Positions 41,316-47,729 of a stretch of 64,000 nt of DNA are shown piece after piece; the stretch's first letter is position 1; each line of letters starts with the position of its first letter. The position numbers and the translations under genes were made by a program. The notes below the pieces were generated by a model. The model searched no databases. It saw only the letters and a program-made list of their open reading frames with translations, and was not told the DNA's origin. The stretch is from positions 68,385-132,384 of the forward strand of contig CBFHGJ010000002.1 of assembly GCA_965655315.1 (NCBI GenBank), in the 5' to 3' direction. This stretch comes from Bacteroidia bacterium (GTDB taxonomy: Bacteria > Bacteroidota > Bacteroidia > NS11-12g > UBA9320).

Positions 41316-42119
41316 TTAGTTCAATTTTTCACATTCACAGTCTGCATTCACCTTTCCTCGTTTTCTATCTTTGGTAACGCAGTAGTCCTCTTTATTTTTT
41401 TCTAATTCAGGACAGTCAAACTTCTCTTCCTCTTTAGCTATGCAATCACAATCTTCATTTACCTTACCCCTCTTTCCATCTTTAGTCTTGCAGATATCAC
41501 CTTCATTCTTTTCTAATTCTGGACAATCAAACTTCTCTTCCTCTTTAGCTATACAATCACAATCTTCATTTACTTTTCCCCATTTACCATCTCTAGTCTT
41601 GCACAGATCACCTTTATTTTTTTCTAGTTCAGGACAATCAAACTTCTCTTCTTCCTTTACTTCACAATCACAGTCCTTGTTTACAAAACCCCACTTTCCA
41701 TCTTCGGTTTTACATCTGTCCTCATAGTTCTTTTCTAGTCTTGGGCAGTCATAACCTCCTTCCTCCTTTGCTTCGCATTCACAGTCTTTATTGATATACC
41801 CTTTTTTACCATCTTTAGTTTCGCAATCATCTCTATAGTTCTTTTCTAACTCAGGACAATCATAATCATCTTCCTTCTCTCTTACTTCACAGTCACAGTC
41901 TTCATTTACAAAGCCAACTTCCCCATCATCCATCTCGCACTTATCTTTAAAATTGAGTTCTAATCTAGGACAGTCATAGTCCTCATCTTTATCCTCATCC
42001 TTGTCTTTTTCTTTTTTTACTCTTTTGATTAAGTCTATAATTTCTGAACGGTCCTTACAACCAGTCCCAACAAAACTGAATCCGAAAACGAATAGTAAAA
42101 TGGCTATTTTATATTTCAT
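41316..42119 (-). CDS. Cys-rich tandem-repeat lipoprotein
   Basis: Lipobox GTG-C; six 37-38-aa repeats DCPxLExNxxDxCxxxDGxxGxVNxDCxC. Confidence 0.85.
   Translation of the reverse strand: MKYKIAILLFVFGFSFVGTGCKDRSEIIDLIKRVKKEKDKDEDKDEDYDCPRLELNFKDKCEMDDGEVGFVNEDCDCEVREKEDDYDCPELEKNYRDDCETKDGKKGYINKDCECEAKEEGGYDCPRLEKNYEDRCKTEDGKWGFVNKDCDCEVKEEEKFDCPELEKNKGDLCKTRDGKWGKVNEDCDCIAKEEEKFDCPELEKNEGDICKTKDGKRGKVNEDCDCIAKEEEKFDCPELEKNKEDYCVTKDRKRGKVNADCECEKLN
41319..41985. repeat. 111-bp coding tandem repeat (6 units)
   Basis: GGACA(A/G)TCAAACTTCTCTTC at 41410, 41521 and 41632 (period 111). Confidence 0.9.
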
Positions 42120-42191: not shown

Positions 42192-42751
42192 TTATTTAAG
42201 GTATTCGTCGGTGAAATGTGAAGTACCTCGATCCTTTGAAATTTTTTCATCGTTGTATTTTTTCGAATCACCTTTTGGTATAGACAGGCTTTTCCAAGAC
42301 TCTCCTTTTATCATGCGACCTACATAGACCATCTGTCCGACATGATATGCATAGTGCATCATCTGTCTATTGATAGCCTCTGATATCGAATGACCCTGAT
42401 TCCTGATATAAACTTTTGTGCTGAAATTATCATTATTGACACTTTTCAGTGCAGTAAATAAACAATCCCACCCTTCTTCCCATTTGGCTAATAACTCTTG
42501 TCTAATTCTTATATCTCCTTCAAACTCGGCATCTCTATTTCTAAATTCCTTTTCACCATCAGTGGTTAAAAAATCTGTCCATCTACTCATCATATTTCCC
42601 CAAAGATGTTTGACATAACGGCTATACTATTACTTGCCTCATTGTAGTGCCAAAACAAGTCCTTGTCGGAAAGTTGAGCTATCGTTTTATCTCCTAGCAT
42701 TTTATAGTAGTTGAATTGCTTTTCGGCACTTTGCAAGTAGTTTTCTTCCAT
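42192..42751 (-). pseudogene. DUF1572 (DinB-like) protein, frameshifted
   Basis: MEENYL...SNSIAV in one frame; VKHLWGNMMSRWTDFLT.DGEK and HYAYHVGQ in another; 1-nt loss at about 42615. Confidence 0.85.
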
Positions 42752-42764
42752 TTCGCCAAGGTAA

Positions 42765-43291
42765 TTAAAACAACGGTAATTGCCCCTTCCATGCCGGATT
42801 TTCCAAGGTAAGTAATTCATTCTTGGCACGAATACCACCAGCATAACCCGTAAGTTGTTTATTTGAACCAATTACTCTGTGACACGGCACTAGAATAGAT
42901 AATGCATTTGCAGACGCTACTGCTCTTATAGCTTTCTCCTTATTCAACTTCTTACTAAGTTCCAGATACGTGCAAGTCGTTCCCTACGGTATTTCAACTA
43001 ATGCTTTCCAGACAAATTTTTGAAAATCTGATCCTATCAACTTAATAGGTATATCAAACTCCCTAAGATTTTTTCAAAGTAGTAGTCCAATTGTTTTGCC
43101 GCTTCGATAAGAAGAGGTGACACTCCAGCTTCGAAAGGCACTTTTAGTTCCTTAGTGAGTCGTGAATCTATTTTTGTTCTTTGTTTACGGTGTAACCAAT
43201 CCACGAGACATAACTCACCGTTGTATTCACCTAATTTGAGCATACCAAAAGGGGATTTGTACTGCGTTATATTGATGGCTTGATTTGACAA
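42765..43291 (-). pseudogene. ogt: Methylated-DNA--protein-cysteine methyltransferase, inactivated
   Basis: PCHRVI active site and GYAGG; frameshift at the A6 run near 43069-43074; TAG at 42984-42986 in IP[Y]G; apparent 9-nt loss in the ANGAN motif. Confidence 0.9.
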
Positions 43292-43412: not shown

Positions 43413-44147
43413 TTGCAACAGCTAAACTTAGATATCTTCAATCCTATTTCACTTAATGAAATGGACAGCGTATCTCTGATGAAGAGGACGGATACTAAAT
43501 TTATTGCTACCATAGCACAACTTAATAAAGTGCTAAATCAGGTCAAAAATGACTATTCCATTTTAGAAATAGATGGTCAGCGAAAAATAGAATATGCCTC
43601 TAATTATTTTGACACAAAAGACTTAGACTTCTATCACGATCATCACAACGGTAAGTCAGATAGGTTGAAGATTCGTACACGAAAATACGTAGCATCTAAC
43701 CTGAGTTTTCTGGAGATAAAACAGAAGGATCCCCAAGGAAGAACGGTTAAAAGCAGAAAGAGAATTGGTGAATACGATCAGCTCAGCACAGACGAACTAA
43801 AATCCTATGTAAATGAAGTAACTGGGCTACAACTCGATTTAAATCAGACTATCACCAACGAATTTTATCGATTCACTTTGGTCAACACCGAGCTAAAAGA
43901 AAGAATCACTGTAGATGTGTCTTTAGGATTTAATAGTTTGAGTTTTGATGATAAACTAGTAATAATAGAATTAAAACAAGAAAAACTGCGACGAAGCTCA
44001 CCCTTCTTCAAAGCATTGAAAGCTGAAAAAATATATCCAATGGGTATCAGCAAGTATTGCATAGGAATGGCAGTTCATAACCCCAAACTGAAACAAAATA
44101 TTTTCAAACCAAAACTAGGAAAAATAGCAAAGCTAACGACCAAATGA
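43413..44147 (+). CDS. VTC-domain (CYTH-fold) polyphosphate-polymerase-like protein
   Basis: LMKRTDTKF, Y.S.YFDT, KIRTRKY, FLEIK, RITVD, IIELK, SKYC. Confidence 0.88.
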   Translation: MQQLNLDIFNPISLNEMDSVSLMKRTDTKFIATIAQLNKVLNQVKNDYSILEIDGQRKIEYASNYFDTKDLDFYHDHHNGKSDRLKIRTRKYVASNLSFLEIKQKDPQGRTVKSRKRIGEYDQLSTDELKSYVNEVTGLQLDLNQTITNEFYRFTLVNTELKERITVDVSLGFNSLSFDDKLVIIELKQEKLRRSSPFFKALKAEKIYPMGISKYCIGMAVHNPKLKQNIFKPKLGKIAKLTTK

Positions 44148-44749
44148 CCGAATTTTTAAACATACCACTTTTCGACGATGACTTTTACAAAATGGCTTTC
44201 CGTTTTGTGCTAAATCTAGTATTTCTTACAGTGATAATTAAGTGGCTGTATTACTCAGCAGCAAAGAGAAAAGATTATCTGTTCACTTATTTTATGATTG
44301 GAATAATTGTATTCTTCCTATGCTTTACCCTTAAAAAGTATGAGCTAGATATAGGAATGGCATTAGGGTTATTTGCCATTTTTGGAATTATACGATACCG
44401 TACAGATCCTATTCCTATCAAAGAAATGACTTACCTTTTTGTCATCATCGGAGTATCAGTGATCAACTCTTTAGCAAATCAAAAGATGAGTTATGCGGAG
44501 ATCATAGGAGCGAATATTGCTGTAGTTGTTGCCCTATGGGTTATGGAAAAACTATGGATTGTAAAAAGTATCTCTACTAAAAAAATACAATACGAGAAGA
44601 TAGAAAATATAAAACCAGAAAACTACGAAATACTTAAAGCTGACTTGGAAGAGAGGACCGGCTTGGCAATTCAAGAAATAGAAATAGGGAATATTGATTT
44701 TCTAAGAGATAGTACTACACTTACTATCAAATACTTTACAGAACAATAA
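44144..44749 (+). CDS. DUF4956 inner-membrane protein
   Basis: GMALGLFAIFGIIRYRT..I.IKEMTYLF; about five TM segments plus a soluble C-domain. Confidence 0.88.
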   Translation: MTEFLNIPLFDDDFYKMAFRFVLNLVFLTVIIKWLYYSAAKRKDYLFTYFMIGIIVFFLCFTLKKYELDIGMALGLFAIFGIIRYRTDPIPIKEMTYLFVIIGVSVINSLANQKMSYAEIIGANIAVVVALWVMEKLWIVKSISTKKIQYEKIENIKPENYEILKADLEERTGLAIQEIEIGNIDFLRDSTTLTIKYFTEQ

Positions 44750-45438
44750 TGAAAAATATATATATCACTTTCATCGCTTTGTGCCTAAGTTTAGGAAGTA
44801 TAGCACAAGAAGGAACTTACGAAACCATTCGAGATTTTGAAGCTTGGACCGCTGCTGAGCTGCATTACAAACCGACTAAAAAAATCAAACTATCACTTCA
44901 GCAACAACTTAGGCTGAAAGATGATGCTAGTACGGTGGACCAATATTTTACTCAATTTGATTTTAGGTACAAGCTTGCCAAAGGCCTTTACCTTACACCT
45001 GCTGTGCGTTACATCAGAGAAAATGACGATCAAGGTAAAATCCAAGGATATGAGAACCACCTCAGATGGAATGCAGATTTGACCTACAAACACGATATCA
45101 AGCGATTTACGCTGAGATATAGAACCCGTTACCAAAGCAAACAGGAACTGCAGGTAGAAGATGAAAACACAAATGTCTTTAGAGCTAAAGCCGCAGTTCA
45201 TTATAATATCAAGAATTGGAAACTAGATCCAGATTTTGCTGCTGAGTTTTTCAATGAACTAGGAGAGGCTAGCGAATGGTATCGAGTAAGATGGACGCTA
45301 GGTACCGATTACAAATTAAAAAATGCTGGAGAACTTGGTCTTTGCTATAGAATAGAACAAGAATTGACTGGGGCGAATCCTAAAACAACCCACATCCTTT
45401 TCCTTAAATATGGATACACCTTGAAAAAAGCGAAATAG
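44749..45438 (+). CDS. DUF2490 outer-membrane beta-barrel
   Basis: Signal peptide (SIA-Q), QLRL, RYRTRYQ, amphipathic strands, terminal YGYTL. Confidence 0.75.
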   Translation: MKNIYITFIALCLSLGSIAQEGTYETIRDFEAWTAAELHYKPTKKIKLSLQQQLRLKDDASTVDQYFTQFDFRYKLAKGLYLTPAVRYIRENDDQGKIQGYENHLRWNADLTYKHDIKRFTLRYRTRYQSKQELQVEDENTNVFRAKAAVHYNIKNWKLDPDFAAEFFNELGEASEWYRVRWTLGTDYKLKNAGELGLCYRIEQELTGANPKTTHILFLKYGYTLKKAK

Positions 45439-45762
45439 ATGACCAAATCAACAATAAAAACAGCAGCAGTTCTGACACTTTTGCTTACTGTCTTTTCTTG
45501 TAAGAAAGTAATATTTATACCGGATGGAGAAGTAAATGAAGGTTTAGCATCTCACAACAATGGCTTCCCTACAGATTATGACGTCGTATTTGACAACTCT
45601 AAGGTACATCGTATAGATATAGTTTTTTCATCTGACGAATGGTCAGATATGCAAGCAGACCTATCCGAAAAAACAGCAGGAGGTGGAGGGCCTGGAGGCA
45701 CATTCAATAGTGAAAATCCAAACTACTACCCTGCAGACATATATTACAACGGTCTAGTTTGA
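45439..45762 (+). pseudogene. cotH: N-terminal fragment of a CotH-family kinase lipoprotein
   Basis: Lipobox VFS-C, DYDVVFD..KVHRIDI.....W..M..DL, NPNYYPADIYYNG; TGA stands where W is expected and the RxKGNSS kinase motif and all downstream sequence are absent. Confidence 0.75.
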
Positions 45763-45769
45763 ACACAGC

Positions 45770-45888
45770 AGAGAACAATGTGTATGATGTTCAGGACTCC
45801 CATTCTGTCGGCACGCCACATACACTGACCACTGAAAATAGAAAAGGTTAGACCGTCTACCTATTTGCAATTTAGATTTTCAGCGGTC
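45770..45888. repeat. Two adjacent imperfect palindromes (attC-like or REP-like remnant)
   Basis: GTGTATG 45780-45786 / CATACAC 45819-45825; GACCACTGAAAAT 45827-45839 / ATTTTCAGCGGTC 45876-45888. Confidence 0.55.
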
Positions 45889-45976
45889 TTTGGCCCTATC
45901 AATCCCTTCTTAAAATAGCCGATCTAGTACCTCACATTTCCTTCGCCTCTTTATTCTCAAATAGACACCTTTAACC

Positions 45977-45984
45977 TACCTTTG
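45977..45984 (+). promoter_or_regulatory. Bacteroidota -7 box of aspS
   Basis: TACCTTTG ending 5 nt before the ATG. Confidence 0.7.
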
Positions 45985-45989
45985 CCGCG

Positions 45990-47729
45990 ATGCACAGAAC
46001 ACACACTTGCGGAGAACTACGATTAACAGATAAAGGCACTCAAGTAACCCTTAGCGGATGGGTACAAAAACGCAGAGATTTTGGAGGAATGACCTTCATC
46101 GATCTTCGTGACAGATACGGTATCACACAACTTGGATTCAATGAAGAAATAGACAAAGAGTTAAATGATAAGGCTCGTTCTTTGGGTCGTGAGTTTGTGA
46201 TCAAAGTGCACGGTGAGGTAATAGAACGTAGCAACAAAAATGCGAATATCCCTACGGGCGAAGTAGAGATACAGGTCAACAATTTTGAAGTACTAAACGC
46301 AGCACTTACCCCTCCTTTTACTATAGAGGATGAAACGGATGGTGGTGAGGAAATAAGACTTAAATACAGATACTTAGACCTAAGAAGAAATCCTATTCAG
46401 GAAAAACTGGTTCTACGTAGTAAACTAAACAAAGCAGTAAGAGACTATTTAGACTCAGCTGATTTCATAGACGTAGAGACCCCATACCTCATCAAATCTA
46501 CTCCTGAAGGAGCAAGAGATTTTGTGGTACCAAGCAGGCTGAACGAAGGGCAATACTACGCTCTTCCTCAGAGTCCTCAGACTTTTAAGCAGTTGCTTAT
46601 GGTAAGTGGGTTAGACAAGTACTATCAAATTGTAAAGTGTTTCAGAGACGAAGATTTTAGAGCAGATCGTCAGCCCGAGTTTACTCAGATAGACTGTGAA
46701 ATGTCTTTTGTAGAAAGAGACGATGTACTCAACACCTTTGAAGGTATGATTAGAACGGTCTTCAAACAGGTGAAAAATATCCAACTAGGAGATATTCCTG
46801 TGTTGACCTACGCGGATGCTATGAAACGATTTGGCAGTGATAAACCAGACATGCGTTTTGGGATGGAGCTAGTAGATTTAGATTCAGTAGCTAAAGGGAA
46901 TGGTCTTGGTGTTTTTGATAATGCAGATAGTGTTGTAGCTATCAATGTAACCGGTGGGAATAAATACACCCGTAAGGAGTTAGATGCCTTCACCAACTGG
47001 GTAAAGCGACCTCAAATTGGTGCTTTAGGATTGATCTATTGTAGAGTAAATGAGGACGGTACTTACAAGTCTTCTGTAGATAAATTCTTTGACCAAGATA
47101 AATTAGCTCAATGGGCTTCTACTTGTGAAAGTAAAGCTGGAGATCTTATCTTAGTGCTCAGTGGCGGAGCTGAAAAAGTGCGTAAGCAAATGAATGAGCT
47201 CCGACTGCACATAGGCGAGCTTAAGGGACTAAGATTAAAAGACAAGTTCAATGCTTGTTGGGTGGTAGATTTCCCATTGGTCGAGTATGACGAAGAAAGT
47301 GATAGATGGCATGCAATGCACCATCCGTTTACCTCTCCTCTCCCAGCAGATAGAGATAAAATGGAGACACAACCAGGCGAGGTTAGAGCTAATGCCTACG
47401 ATATGGCCATTAACGGTATGGAAGTAGGTGGCGGCAGTATTCGTATACACGACAAAGATCTGCAGAAACGCATGTTTAACCTTCTCGGATTCTCAGAAGA
47501 AGAAGCACAGGCTCAATTTGGATTCTTACTAAATGCATTCGAATATGGAGCTCCACCGCACGGTGGTATTGCCTTTGGACTCGATAGACTTGCAGCCATT
47601 CTAGCAGGCACAGATTCTATTCGCGACGTTATAGCTTTCCCTAAGAATAATATGGGAAGAGATATCATGATAGATGCACCTGCTCCTCTAAATAGGGATC
47701 AGAAACGCGAGCTTGGTATAGAAGGTTAA
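45990..47729 (+). CDS. aspS: Aspartate--tRNA ligase
   Basis: [47 protein letters not shown]. Confidence 0.98.

Follow-up and report, generated by a model that had tools for sequence, protein, structure and literature searches.

We analysed a 64,000-nucleotide stretch of DNA (hereafter the window) from a Bacteroidia bacterium (GenBank assembly GCA_965655315.1, contig CBFHGJ010000002.1, positions 68,385 to 132,384) and focused on an operon at window positions 43413-45762. The operon is made up of four + strand open reading frames (ORFs) of 244, 201, 229 and 107 amino acids (aa), which encode a VTC-domain protein, a DUF4956 membrane protein, a predicted DUF2490 outer-membrane barrel and, in ORF4, the remnant of a CotH lipoprotein. 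This locus is best explained as the Bacteroidota (diderm) version of a conserved envelope module that is widespread and handles phosphate. The core of the module is a Vtc4-like enzyme gene that is translationally coupled to a DUF4956 gene and is confined to genomes with a secreted or lipoprotein CotH. Family membership, active-site conservation, gene linkage, the predicted folds and the reality of a deletion in the operon's cotH gene are supported directly by the data. As to the function of the module, the best reading, which we hold tentatively, is a split polyphosphate (polyP) synthase and exporter that would feed extracytoplasmic CotH kinases.

A Vtc4-like enzyme gene is coupled to a DUF4956 gene

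The first gene of the operon (43413..44147, + strand, TTG start) encodes a stand-alone VTC-domain protein of 244 aa that matched PF09359 with 75.7 bits, against a cut-off of 23, over profile positions 1-233 of 235. A Pfam search of this protein returned the VTC domain only, and no SPX or transmembrane (TM) domain was detected. A profile built from 33 VTC homologues of both subfamilies matched the catalytic domain of Vtc4 (3g3q) at E = 1.1e-13, and the same profile produced a weaker and partial match to the inactive Vtc2 (E = 1.3e-7). The alignment of the 33 sequences contained 24 invariant columns. The residues with which Vtc4 binds triphosphate and Mn2+ were mapped onto the window protein by counting along chain 8i6v_E. 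Eight of the nine were kept, each of them invariant across both subfamilies: K200 (K29 in the window protein), R264 and R266 (R88 and R90), K281 (K103), R361 (R153), E426 (E186) and S457 and K458 (S213 and K214). K214 lies within an S-K-Y motif that is invariant in the 33 sequences. The ninth position, Vtc4 Y359, is F151 in the subfamily of the window protein and Tyr in the other subfamily. The available text of the yeast study reports that mutation of these binding residues lowers polyP and that K458 is the only one of them to differ in the inactive Vtc2 and Vtc3, where it is Leu or Ile (10.1101/2023.01.27.525886). On this sequence evidence the window protein is probably a Vtc4-like triphosphate-tunnel enzyme and a candidate polyP polymerase.

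The VTC gene is single copy in the source genome (assembly of 2.45 Mb, 95.5% complete). No match to PPK1 was found in this assembly, and it carries two tandem PPK2 genes (G000:C15:24263-25787) and one PPX gene (C9:42900-43658). Across a sample of 301 Bacteroidota genomes, each at least 90% complete, PPK1 was present in 42 of the 48 genomes with VTC and in 214 of the 253 others (p = 0.83). PPK1 presence is therefore unrelated to VTC across the phylum, suggesting that VTC is an extra, specialised enzyme and not a replacement for PPK1.

The second gene (44144..44749, + strand) overlaps the VTC gene at an ATGA junction (44144-44147) and encodes a DUF4956 inner-membrane protein of 201 aa, also single copy in the source genome. 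It matched PF16316 over the whole profile (positions 1-169 of 169) with 192.8 bits (cut-off 30.6). An AlphaFold2 model built with 83 sequences (pLDDT 91.7) predicted five TM helices at residues 12-40, 44-65, 69-84, 92-109 and 117-137, followed by a C-terminal beta-alpha-beta-beta domain of about 60 aa (residues 143-198). The only residues invariant in the 83 sequences were R84 and R86, in the loop between TM3 and TM4. Near-invariant residues were G71, G75, L76, F77, A78 and F80 in TM3 and T87, F99 and N108 nearby. The positive-inside rule would put the N-terminus on the outer side, leaving the C-terminal domain and both the K-R-K and the R-Y-R-T loops on the inner side. With this orientation R84 and R86 would form an Arg pair within reach of a cytoplasmic enzyme that hands over a polyanion.

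This arrangement was compared with the yeast VTC complex (Vtc4/Vtc3/Vtc1; 3g3q, 7ytj, 8i6v), whose catalytic tunnel domain is homologous to the window VTC protein. In yeast the VTC enzyme is seated on a channel in the membrane, with synthesis and transit coupled, according to the text available (10.1101/2023.01.27.525886). The coupling of enzyme to membrane is covalent in yeast, whereas in the window module it is made through gene pairing. Yeast VTC has an SPX domain and a DUF202-type three-helix membrane domain with a pentameric channel; the window module has neither, and its membrane partner, DUF4956, is encoded separately and is a five-helix protein of unrelated type. The target of yeast VTC is the vacuole, whereas that of the window module would be the periplasm. 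The initial annotation had proposed that VTC and DUF4956 form a split VTC-like polymerase and translocase. The active site and the gene linkage speak for this proposal, but DUF4956 itself has no detectable likeness to the membrane domain of yeast VTC.

The gene pair is conserved across Bacteroidota and restricted to genomes with CotH

Within the 301-genome sample, matches were found to VTC in 48 genomes, to DUF4956 in 91, to CotH in 119 and to DUF2490 in 103. DUF4956 was present in 48/48 VTC genomes and lay directly downstream, on the same strand, of 49 of the 52 VTC matches, with two more within 3 kb and the remaining match being a fragment. CotH was found in all 48 VTC genomes as compared to 71 of the 253 without VTC, and at the genus level all 36 VTC genera fell within the 74 CotH genera of 144 (P = 1.5e-13); the sampled genomes are related, and these counts and P values overstate independence. 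In a set of 14 control genomes VTC and DUF4956 were matched in the same three, all three with CotH. The initial annotation had offered a statistical co-occurrence of its four families as a check, and this was borne out for VTC, DUF4956 and CotH. It was weaker for DUF2490 as the fourth family, which was present in 25 of the 48 VTC genomes with a weak genome-level tie (odds ratio 2.4).

CotH was also present in 88 of the 91 DUF4956 genomes, a figure that is inflated by weak DUF4956 matches in one family (f28, 37 of 49 genomes); for strong or VTC-linked DUF4956 it was 50 of 51. The weak f28 matches were considered as a form of the module and rejected on their context (BrkB, MPG, YceI, DUF6580, HlyD-like). 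The f28 protein is a DUF4956-like paralogue of about 225 aa with a partial match (E about 1e-12; L046:7073-13651, L047), and it is found in a run of BrkB, MPG, YceI, DUF6580, DUF4956-like, HlyD-like, a 410-aa protein without a Pfam family and SDR that is unrelated to VTC.

Gene neighbourhoods were surveyed at the best 80 of at least 593 confirmed loci, and four loci without a called DUF4956 ORF were left out, resulting in 76. By taxon label 79 of the 80 were Bacteroidota-type or 'bacterium' only and one was Planctomycetaceae, making this a within-phylum survey; the evidence for other phyla comes from the control genomes and the literature. Loci were annotated with our own hidden Markov model profiles at E <= 1e-5, which may miss divergent CotH or VTC, so that the counts for these two are lower bounds. 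VTC was directly upstream of DUF4956 in at least 64 of the 76 loci and DUF2490 was directly downstream in 36. CotH was within two genes of DUF4956 in at least 17 loci and anywhere in ±8 kb in at least 25. In the six relatives from the same family that were fetched, the order VTC-DUF4956-DUF2490-(full-length ORF4 homologue) was found every time, with CotH within two genes in 6/6. In three same-genus relatives the operon is followed by aspS, as it is in the window. As this gene order recurs in all six relatives and across the phylum, the arrangement is beyond chance.

The wider neighbourhood differed between classes in 20 loci taken from the 301-genome sample. Genomes of the same class as the source genome often had VTC-DUF4956(-DUF2490) with housekeeping genes, such as EF-G, GrpE/DnaJ, PnuC or DUF480, coming directly after, and those of the other class had a protein of about 360 aa without a Pfam family, then VTC-DUF4956-CotH-CotH, together with variants of this order. 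The ~360-aa protein directly upstream of VTC is conserved and showed only weak SHOCT hints (L036:10159-11277, L038:10540-11610, L040:10747-11826, L042:8029-9096). In one genome of this class the VTC domain forms the C-terminal part of a 778-aa protein (L041:7800-10133).

DUF4956 was also found with partners other than VTC. A calcineurin-like metallophosphoesterase of about 255 aa was in the place of VTC before DUF4956-DUF2490 in 3/3 loci tested (L079:2034-2795, L106:3138-3902, L108:7192-7962). A further locus, L075, has an ORF of metallophosphoesterase size directly upstream of DUF4956-DUF2490. Two loci without VTC carried DUF4956 followed by a protein of 341 or 356 aa without a Pfam family and then a purple acid phosphatase (L044:10419-12868, L045:10387-13155), and in a third variant, again without VTC, DUF4956-DUF2490 was divergent from a CotH gene. 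Together these data show DUF4956 as the hub of the module, with VTC as its commonest partner and phosphate as the common theme. In Crocinitomicaceae- or Cryomorphaceae-like loci the gene after DUF4956, same-strand and about 0-25 bp away, was LpxK, the lipid A 4'-kinase, in all three cases tested (L070:8643-9671, L084:8658-9683, L087:8615-9634), and an ORF of 324-352 aa was in this position in 14 of the 76 loci. The synteny may be due to chance or may be a further link to phosphate.

Fusion ORFs were considered as Rosetta-stone evidence and set aside, as their junctions keep a start-like or signal-peptide-like segment and so indicate adjacency only. The VTC-DUF4956 (P0253) and DUF4956-CotH (P0196) fusions were singletons. 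A 460-aa DUF4956-DUF2490 ORF (P0153) was found in 36 cluster members on many contigs, with an internal Met and a signal peptide at the junction; either this is a genuine read-through gene, or the stop codon between two genes has been lost.

DUF2490 is predicted to form a small outer-membrane barrel

The third gene (44749..45438, + strand) overlaps the DUF4956 gene at a TAATG junction (44747-44751) and encodes a 229-aa member of an operon-linked DUF2490 subfamily that matched PF10677 with 77.5 bits (cut-off 29.8). Other Pfam matches were weak (OprD and Porin_2). The N-terminus reads as a signal peptide, with a hydrophobic helix and an A-Q site, leaving about 205 mature residues. In the AlphaFold2 model (pLDDT 90.3) DSSP called 11 strands of a barrel. 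By VIA-align the model was closest to KdgM (Z = 15.9, root-mean-square deviation 2.3 Å over 157 residues), followed by the NalP translocator (Z = 15.7) and NanC (Z = 15.5), with other 12-stranded barrels at Z about 15 and autotransporter barrels tying at 15.7-15.0. The modelled barrel may belong to the 12-stranded KdgM/NanC-like size class. Pores of the KdgM, NanC and translocator types pass linear acidic sugars or unfolded chains, so passage of polyP through such a barrel is physically conceivable. The predicted barrel resembles the KdgM/NanC porins (4fqe, 4pr7, 2wjq) in size and in its charged lumen, with 21 K/R, 17 D/E and 3 H at the predicted lumen-facing positions, but they share no sequence-family match.

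Of the DUF2490 differences listed between strains, 13/15 were at third codon positions. Among the named control genomes DUF2490 was found only in Caulobacter and B. thetaiotaomicron, and it was not matched in the monoderm and archaeal control genomes that have VTC, DUF4956 and CotH. The initial annotation had cast DUF2490 as the outer-membrane conduit of the system. A barrel is indeed predicted, but it is not a constant member of the module.

The operon cotH gene has lost its kinase domain

ORF4 (45439..45762, + strand, 107 aa) follows the DUF2490 gene at a TAG/ATG abutment (45436-45441), so that all three junctions are as the initial annotation had described when it called the four ORFs tightly coupled. 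ORF4 was identified as the remnant of an operon-type lipoprotein cotH by its homology to the N-termini of relatives' proteins, and its lipobox was read from the sequence. It was 48-71% identical to the first ~107 residues of frames of 445-479 aa in 16 of 59 other same-family genomes. PF08757 was detected in 3/3 of the relatives' frames tested, running from residue ~113-120 to ~432-442 with 201-208 bits, and one relative's full-length frame matched B. cereus CotH (5jd9) at E = 9.3e-12. ORF4 itself had no Pfam match, PF08757 included, and stops where the relatives continue with 'W-K/E-x-V-G-V-R-Y-K-G-N-S-S'. As it ends at residue 107, before the start of the CotH domain, it holds no part of the kinase domain and keeps only the lipoprotein signal and the pre-domain segment. 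ORF4 had been described as a lipoprotein with the CotH N-terminus. This is right in that it is orthologous to the N-termini of full-length CotH proteins, but it is without CotH-domain residues.

The missing part could be measured with a 444-aa cluster-mate (P0450), to whose residues 1-107 ORF4 is 96% identical. Beyond residue 107, P0450 had no match in any frame of window 45400-46000 by tblastn. As only residues 1-107 were matched, about 337 codons (~1 kb) comprising the whole kinase domain are missing. The 227-bp spacer from the ORF4 stop codon to aspS (45763..45989) is the scar of this deletion as judged by tblastn and blastn; compared with relatives by blastn, it matched only at the last bases before aspS. 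Besides P0450, the cluster of ORF4 at >=90% identity contained three variants of 107 aa, one form of 125 aa whose end differs and a piece of 54 aa. Contigs were unbroken across the deletion junction in 4/4 runs from four studies, indicating that the deletion allele is real and widespread and not an assembly error. Within the remnant, 10 of the 14 differences listed among deletion-allele strains were at third codon positions (p = 0.004 versus one third), with 35 further differences unlisted. Either selection still acts on the lipoprotein remnant or the polymorphisms arose before the deletion. The bias was therefore set aside as proof of selection on the remnant.

The source genome carries five other intact CotH genes that are 24-28% identical to the operon type. 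All five paralogues have secretion-type N-termini, and the operon type of the relatives starts with a signal peptide or lipobox. One paralogue, of 538 aa, is on the same contig about 7 kb beyond the window end (G000:C2:139287-140348). The operon gene of the relatives belongs to the same family (PF08757) as the Bacillus CotH spore-coat kinase (5jd9). Unlike Bacillus CotH, the operon type is a lipoprotein and comes from a bacterium that forms no spores, and the window copy is without the entire domain. The initial annotation had suggested that the first three genes may serve another CotH or work alone, which fits both the five intact paralogues and the relatives without an adjacent cotH. The intact three-gene rump would work alone or with the five CotH paralogues.

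Genomic setting of the operon

The sequencing runs that hold the window stretch are seawater and marine plankton metagenomes, and the nearest named records are marine 'Bacteroidia bacterium' metagenome-assembled genomes. The operon is surrounded by a histidine kinase gene, a thioredoxin-like gene, broken DinB-like and MGMT genes and aspS, with no pel genes adjoining. Upstream on the - strand the DUF1572 (DinB-like) gene is split into 42195-42593 and 42593-42871, and fragments of the 6-O-methylguanine DNA methyltransferase (MGMT) gene are at 42768-42947 (DNA_binding_1 C-terminus) and 43040-43291 (without a Pfam match). These broken genes within 42195-43291, together with the cotH deletion, suggest local gene decay in a small genome. 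Also on the - strand, 41316-42119 encodes a 267-aa lipoprotein-like ORF without a Pfam family and with about seven Cys-rich repeats ('DCPELEKN…C.TKDGK.G.VN.DCDC').

A promoter scan found 7 promoter-like sites compared to 10.0 ± 2.5 expected, with a tool that does not cover Bacteroidota promoters, and a terminator scan found one terminator-like site compared to 1.6 expected. There were no RNA datasets among the runs listed as holding the window stretch.

Discussion

The closest published relatives of this module are found beside Gram-positive pel operons, where the available text describes cotH, a 'polyP polymerase' gene and DUF4956, with DUF4832 or a diguanylate cyclase/phosphodiesterase, as contiguous accessory genes (10.1101/768473). 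This pel-linked trio consists of the same three families, contiguous as in the Bacteroidota module, with a CotH that is predicted to be secreted, a cytoplasmic VTC protein with catalytic residues and a DUF4956 protein with a membrane part and a C-terminal soluble domain (10.1101/768473; PMC12345266, as far as their accessible text goes). For S. intermedius it is reported that deletion of the DUF4956 or CotH homologue changed Pel levels and aggregation, and the authors suggested a link to phosphate metabolism; in the text available they found no three-gene synteny outside pel loci (PMC12345266). In C. perfringens NELoc-2 a VTC gene and a gene for a membrane protein annotated as 'tubulin/FtsZ' form a pair beside a CotH gene (PMC2879425, accessible text), and in B. 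thetaiotaomicron BT3498 and BT3499 are annotated as DUF4956 and DUF2490 (PMC10434189, accessible text). Compared with the pel-linked trio as described there, the window operon is not beside pel, has the barrel inserted, has no DUF4832 and has a truncated cotH. The window module is the diderm, pel-independent, barrel-bearing form of a gene set already in print, and the Bacteroidota loci correct the published statement that limits the trio to pel operons. The initial annotation knew of no functional description of the module, which is nearly right except that the trio has been published with knockouts (10.1101/768473; PMC12345266, in their available text). In the open literature we found no account of the Bacteroidota four-gene form outside pel loci, although supplementary figures may hold more architectures, nor any biochemical work on a bacterial VTC-domain protein or any suggestion that polyP export feeds CotH.

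In the mechanism that we tentatively favour, the VTC enzyme would use ATP to make polyP on the cytoplasmic side of the inner membrane and hand the chain to a DUF4956 oligomer, whose Arg-x-Arg loop would face the cytoplasm and which would pass the chain to the periplasm. Where the DUF2490 barrel is present, the polyanion or phosphate derived from it would cross the outer membrane through it, and extracytoplasmic CotH kinases would use or act on the exported polyP. In the source genome the cotH gene of the operon has lost its whole kinase domain through the ~1-kb deletion, fixed in a marine lineage. The enzyme activity, the docking of VTC on DUF4956, the translocation and the use by CotH are inferred. 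A more ambitious version, which we consider unlikely, is a trans-envelope polyP secretion line made up of VTC, DUF4956 and, in diderms, the DUF2490 barrel, in which secreted and lipoprotein CotH kinases take exported polyP, and not ATP, as the donor for surface proteins or glycans. Under this polyP-donor version the metallophosphatase-DUF4956 variants would be a reverse or recycling branch of phosphate traffic.

Several observations weigh against a synthase and exporter that feeds CotH. DUF4956 had no detectable similarity to the Vtc1/Vtc4 membrane domain in the structural-neighbour lists, where absence is weak evidence. Foldseek against the PDB returned no match at E <= 0.001, and the best VIA-align hit (an archaeal-virus helical protein, Z = 9.2) was below the tool's noise level for helical bundles, with its rows barely covering the C-terminal domain; a protein atlas search for DUF4956 gave no usable match. 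The single five-helix DUF4956 subunit, as modelled, shows no pore. DUF4956 occurred without VTC in 11 of the 76 loci, and three strong DUF4956 matches without VTC (G193, G169, G257) were found among the 301 genomes; the VTC-less copies beside metallophosphoesterases, purple acid phosphatases or CotH alone argue that the role of DUF4956 is not tied to a polymerase. DUF2490 was directly downstream in only 36/76 loci. A buried lumenal charge network is reported in many DUF2490 members (10.64898/2026.07.29.741452, available text), and the nearly balanced lumen of the window protein (+4) suggests that its barrel may be plugged. On the enzyme side, the Phe at the Y359 position matters as Y359F in Vtc4 lowers polyP in yeast (10.1101/2023.01.27.525886, available text), and deletion of the VTC homologue in S. 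intermedius is reported to give no aggregation or Pel phenotype (PMC12345266, available text). The CotH biochemistry on record, as far as the accessible text shows, is that of a Ser/Thr kinase acting on spore-coat proteins (PMC7821199). The relatedness of the sampled genomes, given above, belongs here too. The spore-coat kinase CotH is reported to use ATP as its donor.

A different explanation, which is possible though rather doubtful, is that polyP is made and stays in the cytoplasm, with DUF4956 acting as a tether, regulator or phosphate sensor, the tie to CotH reflecting shared regulation and the barrel serving as an uptake porin for phosphate or organophosphate. In the available text of the S. 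intermedius study the homologue is likened to MgtC and read as 'MgtC TM + ACT', and the authors suggest that polyP may remain cytoplasmic (PMC12345266). DUF4956 does share a layout with the MgtC/SapB family, in which a small alpha/beta domain on the cytoplasmic side comes after about five TM helices, and is colinear in this with MgtC-family ORFs. The weak Foldseek matches of its C-terminal part were ACT-type domains (AcuB, TyrA and homoserine dehydrogenase). The likeness to MgtC/SapB (PF02308) was kept as one of layout only, and a demonstrated relationship was rejected, as hhalign of 83 DUF4956 against nine MgtC sequences gave an insignificant probability of 2.9% and no Pfam MgtC match was found at E <= 0.01; the DUF4956 signature G-x3-G-L-F-A-x-F … R-Y-R-T had no MgtC counterpart in the hhalign alignment. 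The pairing of DUF4956 with different phosphate enzymes is what might be expected of a sensor or regulator, but bacteria can keep polyP in the cytoplasm without any partner in the membrane. As PPK1 was not matched in the source genome, VTC could supply most of its polyP, yet PPK1 status is unrelated to VTC phylum-wide. The near-obligate pairing with DUF4956, the restriction to CotH genomes and the inserted outer-membrane barrel all point outward.

It is improbable that the VTC protein is not a polymerase at all, and instead hydrolyses triphosphate or nucleoside triphosphates or binds polyP, acting alongside DUF4956 to signal or to release or export phosphate. The triphosphate-tunnel enzyme superfamily includes hydrolases, and in three loci a metallophosphoesterase stands in the place of VTC, suggesting that DUF4956 can also be served by a phosphohydrolase. 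The Phe at the Y359 position and the S. intermedius VTC knockout without a phenotype (PMC12345266, available text) would also fit. Opposed to this, the other eight Vtc4 residues are invariant, including the K458 position that marks an active polymerase, and the profile match is stronger to Vtc4 than to Vtc2.

That the window module is a decaying relic, its three genes now idle and heading to loss, is very improbable: the lost cotH kinase domain, the broken opposite-strand neighbours (DUF1572 in two, MGMT in fragments) and the small genome would agree with it, but the three genes remain whole and keep every invariant residue, contigs of 4/4 runs from four studies retain the deletion allele together with intact upstream genes, the DUF2490 differences listed are mostly at third codon positions, VTC-DUF4956(-DUF2490) has no neighbouring cotH in many relatives, and five other CotH genes remain in the genome.

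The split synthase and exporter would bear on a general problem of CotH biology. CotH-family kinases are common in non-spore-forming bacteria, mostly with secretion signals, and ATP is scarce outside the cytoplasm. The same genes are present in tractable hosts such as Bacteroides thetaiotaomicron and cultivable Flavobacteriaceae, and Lutibacter, Maribacter, Tamlana and Flavivirga are among the cultivable carriers. The window itself is of smaller value; its copy is a natural 'cotH-minus' allele in which the other three genes have been kept without cotH. To our knowledge coupled polyP synthesis and membrane transit is so far seen only in eukaryotic VTC, and if the favoured mechanism is true the module would be its first bacterial counterpart. 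If CotH kinases do take exported polyP as donor, this would answer how bacterial kinases work outside the cytoplasm. The most concrete lead on the donor and substrates of CotH kinases is a Vtc4-like enzyme that is tied to a membrane protein and occurs in no genomes but those with CotH.

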